NCBI GenBank assembly: GCA_963813135.1
Contig: CAWEXY010000010.1
Location: forward strand, 32,001 to 96,000
Direction of reading: 5' to 3'
DNA length: 64,000 nucleotides
From: an uncultured Verrucomicrobiae bacterium
GTDB lineage: Bacteria; Chlamydiota; Chlamydiia; Chlamydiales; Rhabdochlamydiaceae
The notes beneath the pieces were generated by a model. It searched no databases. It was not told the DNA's origin and saw only the letters and a program-made list of their open reading frames with translations. Both the position numbers and the translations under genes were made by a program. Of this stretch, positions 61,934 through 62,372 are shown one piece after another (the first letter of the stretch is position 1; each line of letters begins with the position of its first letter).

Positions 61934-62372
61934 ATGTCAAAATTTCACCATGAACGATCGCCATGCCGCAGCCTACCCATTCATGGGTAGGTTAGGCAGG
62001 CACTGATTGGTCAATTCCTTGAATCCTCGAAGAATCTCGTTGCTTCAGCGACGAGTTCTTCAATCGTTAGCTGCCGGTCGGTGGTTCACTTTCACCCTAG
62101 CTGAGCAGCTTGGAAATGTCGGCAGTGAAATCAGCCGTATGATCAAAGCTCGCGGAGATAAAGAGCGCTATCATAATGCCGCCATGCGGGCTAGCGAACT
62201 ATTAGACCTTACTATTAGCGATCCTCGTTGGAAAAAGCGATTGAAAGAGCTGTGCCGGGTGAGGGCCCTTTTCCTCGATACCGTCTGGGGGATCAATGAG
62301 TTCAAAACTTCTCTTGAAGACCTAGATAGATATTTTTATCACTTTGCCTACGCGTCGCGTATTCATAAGTAG
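61934..62372 (+). pseudogene. Small helical hypothetical gene interrupted after codon 5-6 by a 112-bp insertion
   Basis: ATG TCA AAA TTT CAC CAT + TCG TTA GCT GCC GGT CGG TGG joins in frame to MSKFHHSLAAGRWFTFTLAEQLGNVGSE..ELLDLT..DP; promoter-like TTGCAT-N18-TATCGT upstream. Confidence 0.7.
61952..62063 (+). mobile_element. Non-autonomous IS200/IS605-type miniature element
   Basis: Left hairpin CCTACCCAT-TC-ATGGGTAGG; right end GAAT-CTCGTTGCT-TC-AGCGACGAG-TTCT-TCAA; no TSD; excision restores the frame. Confidence 0.72.

Follow-up and report, generated by a model that had tools for sequence, protein, structure and literature searches.

The window, a stretch of 64,000 nucleotides, contains between miaB and rplM a 1.25-kb accessory segment with an interrupted short gene and an F-box protein gene (Table 1). 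The ATG at 61934 opens with MSKFHH and then runs into an insert, where an in-frame TAG at 61988-61990 ends the peptide at 18 residues. The F-box gene (62506-63090) lies behind an AT-rich spacer, within the segment missing from the same-genus genome G001, and its product resembles proteins that intracellular bacteria direct at their hosts. On the other side, miaB (60503-61853, minus strand) is split into frames of 70 and 382 amino acids; a contig of run X1 is without one base at 61659 (depth 3.3), and a faulty assembly is the likely cause of the split.

Table 1 Features of the interrupted gene, its insertion and the surrounding segment, in window coordinates
Feature	Position	Strand	Remarks
Accessory segment (interrupted gene and F-box gene), between miaB and rplM	61894..63140	.	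Missing at the matching G001 site
Interrupted gene, 5' part: MSKFHHE (7 codons), with the target at its end	61934..61954	+	Same seven N-terminal residues as P0003
Target tetranucleotide TGAA and predicted left cleavage site; belongs to the host, outside the element	61951..61954	+	Kept in P0003 and in the nested copy
Predicted non-autonomous IS200/IS605-type element (PATE), 109 bp	61955..62063	+	Copies, junction test, no target duplication
Left guide position, GCAG here (damaged guide)	61968..61971	+	CAAT in 21/23 copies
Left subterminal hairpin, 8-bp stem, TTCA loop; holds the premature TAG (61988-61990)	61972..61991	+	
TTG inside the element, possible start of a 121-aa ORF in the frame of the 3' gene part	62007..62009	+	Start use putative
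Right guide GAAT	62032..62035	+	Same as IS608 GR
Right subterminal hairpin, 8-bp stem, TTCA loop	62036..62055	+	
End of the element, TCAA, the predicted right cleavage site	62060..62063	+	Copy conservation stops here; equals IS608 CR
Interrupted gene, 3' part: 102 codons, no stop or frameshift	62064..62372	+	893 relatives

The initial annotation had placed the left boundary of the insert after CCAT (112 bp) or after TCAC (115 bp). We tried 157 in-frame stop-free cuts and scored the 15 N-terminal residues of each against P0003, the nearest intact relative (88%), which begins MSKFHHESLAAGRWF. The cut 61955-62063 matched at 15/15 residues, a score reached only by three equivalent 109-bp cuts, all leaving TGAA behind. 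The 112-bp cut (61952-62063) and the 115-bp cut (61949-62063) are also in frame but remove host codons, and they matched P0003 at 7/15 and 6/15 residues. Because only cuts that retain TGAA give the full match, the comparison indicates that this tetranucleotide is the target and stays in the host gene, and that the element is 61955-62063. Excision there would restore a 109-residue gene identical to P0003 at 98/110 aligned positions. The earlier claim that precise excision restores the gene holds at the corrected boundary; the empty-site junction proposed at the time is wrong, as it lacks GAA.

The glutamate that fixes this boundary is known from the protein sequence of P0003. Another relative, P0004, reads FFHESLA near its start and likewise has H-E-S, and the near-start consensus of relatives of the host gene is F-x-H-x-S-L-A. 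The opposite reading, in which TCAA is retained and gives H-Q-S, scored 14/15 against P0003, and the boundary position in more distant relatives is Q in 28/119 and E in 15/119. The loop of a nested copy therefore matters as a second boundary test. At C16:22977-23200 (L022, L026) a younger copy at C16:23058 lies reversed inside the left-hairpin loop of an older copy. If TGAA is kept, the older loop reads TTCA, as in the window copy and the C19 copy; the loop TTGA given by the alternative reading is absent from the copy alignment.

We compared the flanks of 23 full copies from the same genome. Conservation runs from TGAAC to TTCAA, an extent that by itself cannot assign TGAA to element or host, and TGAA stands 5' of all 23 copies, a count that is not independent since the search model included TGAA. 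The preceding base is variable (T in 14 copies, A in seven, G in two), and in the 14 copies preceded by T, target and right end form a 5-bp mirror, TTGAA/TTCAA. The element starts with CGAT and ends with TCAA. A target duplication of at least 3 nt was found in 0/23 copies, with AA alone repeated in three, and terminal inverted repeats are lacking once TGAA is counted as host DNA; on both points the initial annotation was right.

Anatomy. The two subterminal hairpins with their in-frame stop, GAAT before the right hairpin and TCAA as the last bases had all been described correctly (Table 1). Across 14 aligned copies taken from three genomes, whose kin sequences are not independent, both stems were paired in 97.3% of cells, and 10/16 pairs had changed on both sides. 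None of 500 shuffles paired as highly, and slid controls reached 41–61%. Hairpin pairing is preserved through compensatory changes. In 21/23 copies the left hairpin has the guide CAAT at its foot, 18–19 nt from TGAA. One of the two exceptions reads GAAT and the other is the window copy, with GCAG at 17 nt, in keeping with the earlier remark that its left guide is imperfect. The final T of the left guide is present in 22/23 copies, the window copy being the one without it. At the right end the family has GAAT, the hairpin and then TTCTTCAA, with TT as the two bases 3' of the hairpin. The only Rfam match in the element was a sub-threshold 37-nt hairpin, and a scan of the element for promoters and terminators gave nothing above chance.

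These ends resemble those of IS608 from Helicobacter pylori, in which the left site TTAC goes with guide AAAG and the right site TCAA with GAAT; the first guide base pairs with site position -3 and the second with -4, and 19 nt separate the left site from the hairpin (PMC3201880, PMC5934647). We read the fourth guide-site pair off the IS608 examples AAAG/TTAC and GAAT/TCAA. The resulting rule predicts guide CAAT for target TGAA and pairs right guide GAAT with right site TCAA. By this rule left guide and target would pair in the family as a whole and not in the window copy. Shared with IS608 are the right guide and right site, a left site outside the element, its similar distance to the hairpin foot and the pairing rule itself. 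Our family differs in having TGAA/CAAT in place of TTAC/AAAG, in carrying neither tnpA nor tnpB, in having 8 nt rather than 10 beyond the right hairpin and in the TT at its foot, where IS608 and autonomous relatives have AG that forms base triples.

Copies in the genome. A profile built from BLAST hits and run on the 1.83-Mb, 82%-complete assembly (G000) gave 31 matches: the 23 full copies, one older copy split by a younger one, four fragments of the right end, and three matches too weak to keep. The search for other copies called for earlier thus succeeded. The full copies are 101–135 bp long (E 1e-25 or better) and comprise 13 distinct sequences, with ten copies identical over 111 bp and the window copy 68–82% identical to the others. 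The ten identical copies imply a recent burst, in which TnpA acted recently. Right-end-only or core-deleted forms lie at C11:115033-115070, C21:151622-151664, C6:9680-9722 and C30:13110-13157; the C11 form, an almost perfect palindrome of 38 bp whose first bases are TGAA, resembles the terminal-only palindrome-associated transposable elements (PATEs) of Haloquadratum. On the G-rich strand we counted 14–15/23 copies, no clear bias (p 0.2–0.4 in this fragmented assembly); IS200/IS605 elements are expected to show an orientation bias towards the lagging-strand template (PMC5027513).

Most copies are located outside long frames. Other copies interrupt an LRR-protein gene, a DUF7932 gene and, twice, an IS3-type transposase gene at C6:21918-22910 (L024), where a frame of 297 codons stays open through the second copy, 111 bp long. 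Close relatives of the IS3-type gene were found in 0/70 genomes at E 1e-40. Overall the distribution of copies looks like ordinary parasitic spread into dispensable DNA.

The genome holds a second, unrelated repeat family of ~70-bp single hairpins that begin TTTTAACGCAAAG and end CTTTGCGTTAAAA, seen at ~57776-57841 of the window and in dozens of other places in G000, one of them directly following the element copy at C8:33995. A rarer CACAGAG-type hairpin is present as well.

Relatives and the transposase. The same-genus genome G001 gave at least nine element matches. The family right end was found in 16/401 genomes of the order, two of the 16 being hairpin-less chance hits; a reversed control pattern gave two matches in all. 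Right-end matches were most numerous in G293 (37) and G321 (22), followed by G032 (11), G225 (9) and G410 (5), with elements of 89–144 bp in these relatives. Neither G000 (82% complete) nor G001 contained a Y1_Tnp or TnpB domain, and tblastn of six TnpA and 14 long TnpB-like ORFs against G000 gave no TnpA match and one weak match (E 0.004). Since the assembly is 82% complete and the burst was recent, tnpA may sit in unassembled DNA.

Y1_Tnp is present in 182/400 genomes of the order. Among 31 tnpA loci inspected, three (L043, L044 and L049) have a left end with TGAA and a CAAT-hairpin. An element of 1.6 kb in G142 (loci L113-L118) codes for TnpA (Y1_Tnp) and TnpB, and in 5/6 loci examined its left end is TGAA followed by CG and a CAAT-hairpin, with a right end of GAAT-hairpin-AGGTTCAA, also in 5/6. 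With our family this element, like the ends of L043 and L049, shares TGAA, the CG start, CAAT and GAAT-hairpin-TTCAA; it differs in hairpin sequence, in AGG before TTCAA and in its 1.6 kb with both genes. We consider the G142 element a relative and claim no parent status for it. Other tnpA elements have AAAA at the hairpin foot and TTAT upstream, as the pairing rule predicts (judged by eye). No autonomous element with the exact hairpin-TTCTTCAA right end was found among the 31 tnpA loci or the pattern matches, the latter inspected over about 135–200 bases upstream only. The right-end pattern gave 11 matches in metagenome contigs, with no parent bearing these ends among those inspected, and none in viral contigs. 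The left-end pattern gave none in metagenome contigs and three in genome contigs, two of which are repeat flanks already in the set and so not independent. The proposed search for a parent tnpA/tnpB element thus recovered an element with the same left end and none with the exact right end. Four genomes (G293, G307, G410 and G032) carry both tnpA and miniature elements, the hairpins being very similar in G307 and G410; this co-occurrence suggests mobilisation in trans.

In 40 parsed relatives, a parse that required TGAA, the left guide was CAAT in 21 and CAAT parsed one base out of register in three. The remaining guides were AAAT, GGGT, TTAT, AAGT, TAAT, GAGT or GTCA, still after TGAA, with AAAT in four G225 copies. 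The guide ended in T in 38/40. Relatives in G293, G225, G377 and L106 combine the guides GGGT, AAAT, TTAT or AAGT with a third, central hairpin. Mismatched guides after TGAA fall outside the IS608 rule and may mark decayed copies or a left-end choice that tolerates mismatches. Because copies with GGGT, AAAT and TTAT still follow TGAA, one can imagine that the left end is cut despite a guide mismatch, that an unrelated TnpA could excise the window copy and that such elements serve as scarless, revertible knock-outs in symbionts. We regard this as unlikely.

A different kind of miniature repeat, either an inverted-repeat MITE (TTGAA...TTCAA) or a REP/REPIN moved by RAYT, would accommodate the mirror in 14/23 copies, the missing direct parent and the presence of another hairpin repeat family in the genome. 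A REPIN consists of two REP hairpins in inverted orientation. It is opposed by the host origin of TGAA, the varying base before it, the absence of target duplication, two hairpins that point in the same direction with different guides and a left end that matches a tnpA+tnpB element. The copy alignment has no inverted hairpin pair and no conserved GTAG or CGTC, the tag at the hairpin end that is a hallmark of REPs (PMC3733652). We hold this explanation to be very improbable. Identity as a non-autonomous IS200/IS605-type element is instead supported by copies, target, guides, covariation and the autonomous relative. The insertion and its type, as first annotated, are thus upheld by the 23 copies and the covariation, with the length corrected from 112 to 109 bp.

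Comparison with PATEs. PATEs were described from Haloquadratum walsbyi (PMC3119063), and PATE-like elements from Geobacillus stearothermophilus (PMC10055086) and Halanaerobium (PMC7290912). Like PATEs, our elements are short, have no transposase, no terminal inverted repeats and no target duplication, carry near-terminal palindromes and have ends related to IS605-type elements (PMC3119063). They also occur, as PATEs do, as homogeneous bursts beside heterogeneous older copies, with internal deletions and nesting (PMC3119063). Judged from its sequence, the element has every feature of the PATE definition as described in PMC3119063. The family differs from known PATEs in host lineage, which gene content suggests to be chlamydia-like, in the target TGAA, the right tail TTCTTCAA and its length of 89–144 bp, the comparison being with published descriptions. 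A literature search by title or abstract returned no matching paper on PATE-type elements in chlamydiae or as phase-variation switches, and the accessible text of PMC9723776 has no mention of IS200, IS605 or palindromes.

Mobility of the window copy. We favor, at a probability of roughly 75%, an IS200/IS605 peel-and-paste insertion after TGAA, with TnpA from elsewhere and this copy now probably immobile. A 109-bp two-hairpin element without coding capacity would have inserted after TGAA in codon 7 and broken the frame. On the model of IS608 and ISDra2, TnpA supplied from elsewhere would bind both hairpins on single-stranded DNA, left guide CAAT would pair with TGAA and right guide GAAT with TCAA, and the element would leave as a circle while the flanks rejoin with TGAA kept. 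Because GCAG loses predicted pairs, the window copy would excise poorly, and the gene would most likely be a lasting knock-out, tolerated because it is dispensable. For ISGst elements, excision requires a compatible left guide (PMC10055086). The window copy would accordingly fit a PATE but probably not an active peel-and-paste substrate. Against this, the varied guides of relatives suggest that movement may tolerate a mismatch, no autonomous element with the exact right end turned up among the loci inspected, the right hairpin has TT at its foot in place of AG, the copies show no clear strand bias, the 3' part of the gene is not clearly decayed, and after so recent a burst a tnpA may lie in unassembled DNA. 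The initial description of the element as TnpA-mobilisable is supported for the family, whose ends fit the IS608 rule, and much less so for this copy, given the damaged guide and the lack of a detected tnpA in G000 or G001.

The initial annotation had also suggested a reversible switch, in which the element is still excisable, so that the gene alternates in the population between an off state (filled) and an on state (empty). Excision would indeed restore the full 109-aa frame, the 3' part of the gene is intact, as are both hairpins and the right guide of the window copy, and non-CAAT guides recur in relatives, some in multiple copies (such as the AAAT copies of G225). ISDra2 of Deinococcus radiodurans also inserts 3' of a fixed motif, TTGAT (PMC2806898). 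TnpA in trans precisely excises the gene-free derivative ISDra2-113 and restores the interrupted gene, tetA (PMC2806898); that restoration was obtained in an engineered system in which the ends were intact and TnpA was provided, whereas the left guide of the window copy is damaged. GCAG lacks the final T kept in 38/40 relatives and 22/23 own copies, and a source of TnpA was found in neither G000 nor G001. Since about 17,000 TGAA sites in the genome are open to re-insertion, the off step would not be site-specific, leaving at best a one-way, unregulated reversion. Copies in unrelated genes and intergenic DNA and one nested copy are what random spread would leave, and the gene is accessory and without its usual partner. 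The switch is, in our judgement, improbable, and we prefer the immobile insertion.

The interrupted gene. The product is predicted to be an all-helical protein of ~109 aa (model pLDDT 90). It has no named family in Pfam, NCBIfam, PADLOC or PDB sequences and no fold match at E 0.001, with a weak likeness to FliS-type bundles. The gene was found in 9/61 genomes searched, and a search for viral relatives returned no locus. Members of the family often lie just behind a DUF5674 gene whose stop overlaps their start (L002:1142-1812; L003:1082-1812, a similar ORF); this partner was not found in G000. At L003 the DUF5674-type two-gene module adjoins toxin-antitoxin-like genes. The 3' part has two departures at 40 highly conserved columns, the same number as P0003, and shows no clear decay. 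Its patchy occurrence, its absence at the matching G001 site and the missing partner mark the gene as accessory.

The gene might also still be on if translation restarted at a TTG inside the element, at 62007, as first noted, or at 62040, to give a near-full protein. Both TTGs are in frame with the intact 3' part, the first lies 17 nt after the premature stop, and a gene caller chose the second as the start of its protein (P0002). The product would be without a histidine that 117/119 relatives have, and model confidence is low at its residues 1–10. The second TTG is part of the right hairpin stem. No obvious ribosome-binding site precedes either TTG, and both have low predicted accessibility (0.29–0.30), though that of the native ATG is 0.23. 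Rescue from 62007 would thus keep the frame and lose a nearly invariant residue, and we think restart quite unlikely. The N-terminus of P0002 is false, and gene callers miss the element.

Empty sites and reads. Eight sequencing runs, none recorded as RNA, were compared with the window as contigs, none of which spanned the element or held a joint across it. Two records match the filled allele with no differences at depth 2–3: X4 record 7 (61829-61979) reaches 25 bases into the element and X8 record 21 (62048-62198) 16 bases, both below our bar of 31 bases for reads crossing a junction, so that the runs favour neither the presence nor the absence of an empty allele. Empty-site DNA was compared with G001 at 11 relative loci against G000 and four G000 loci against G001, and these had diverged or did not share the junction; the single aligned junction (L015 vs C13) has drifted and fits either boundary reading. 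The filled allele could in principle be an artefact of assembly, with a repeat wrongly joined into the gene, and a likely error does lie nearby, in the extra base at 61659. Yet no other copy shares more than 82% identity with the window copy, whose sequence is thus unique and which sits exactly after TGAA with base-precise ends, which makes such an artefact extremely unlikely.

The window therefore holds a real insertion, of the PATE kind, in a copy that is probably stuck rather than a working switch. It is a clean natural example of the class, whose target, guides and empty allele the sequence itself reveals, and its family, apparently without a name so far, is an addition to a lineage for which our title and abstract search found none described. 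If copies with mismatched guides are mobile, they bear on the accepted rule that guide pairing chooses the target, and if empty and filled alleles coexist, the element matters more.

Two further features were recorded. Long tandem coding repeats occupy ~34100-36000 of the window (C10:66132-68230), within a 1202-aa ORF at 33261-36869. Elsewhere in the assembly, extended G, T and A homopolymers at C18:26553-27023 are likely an assembly artefact.
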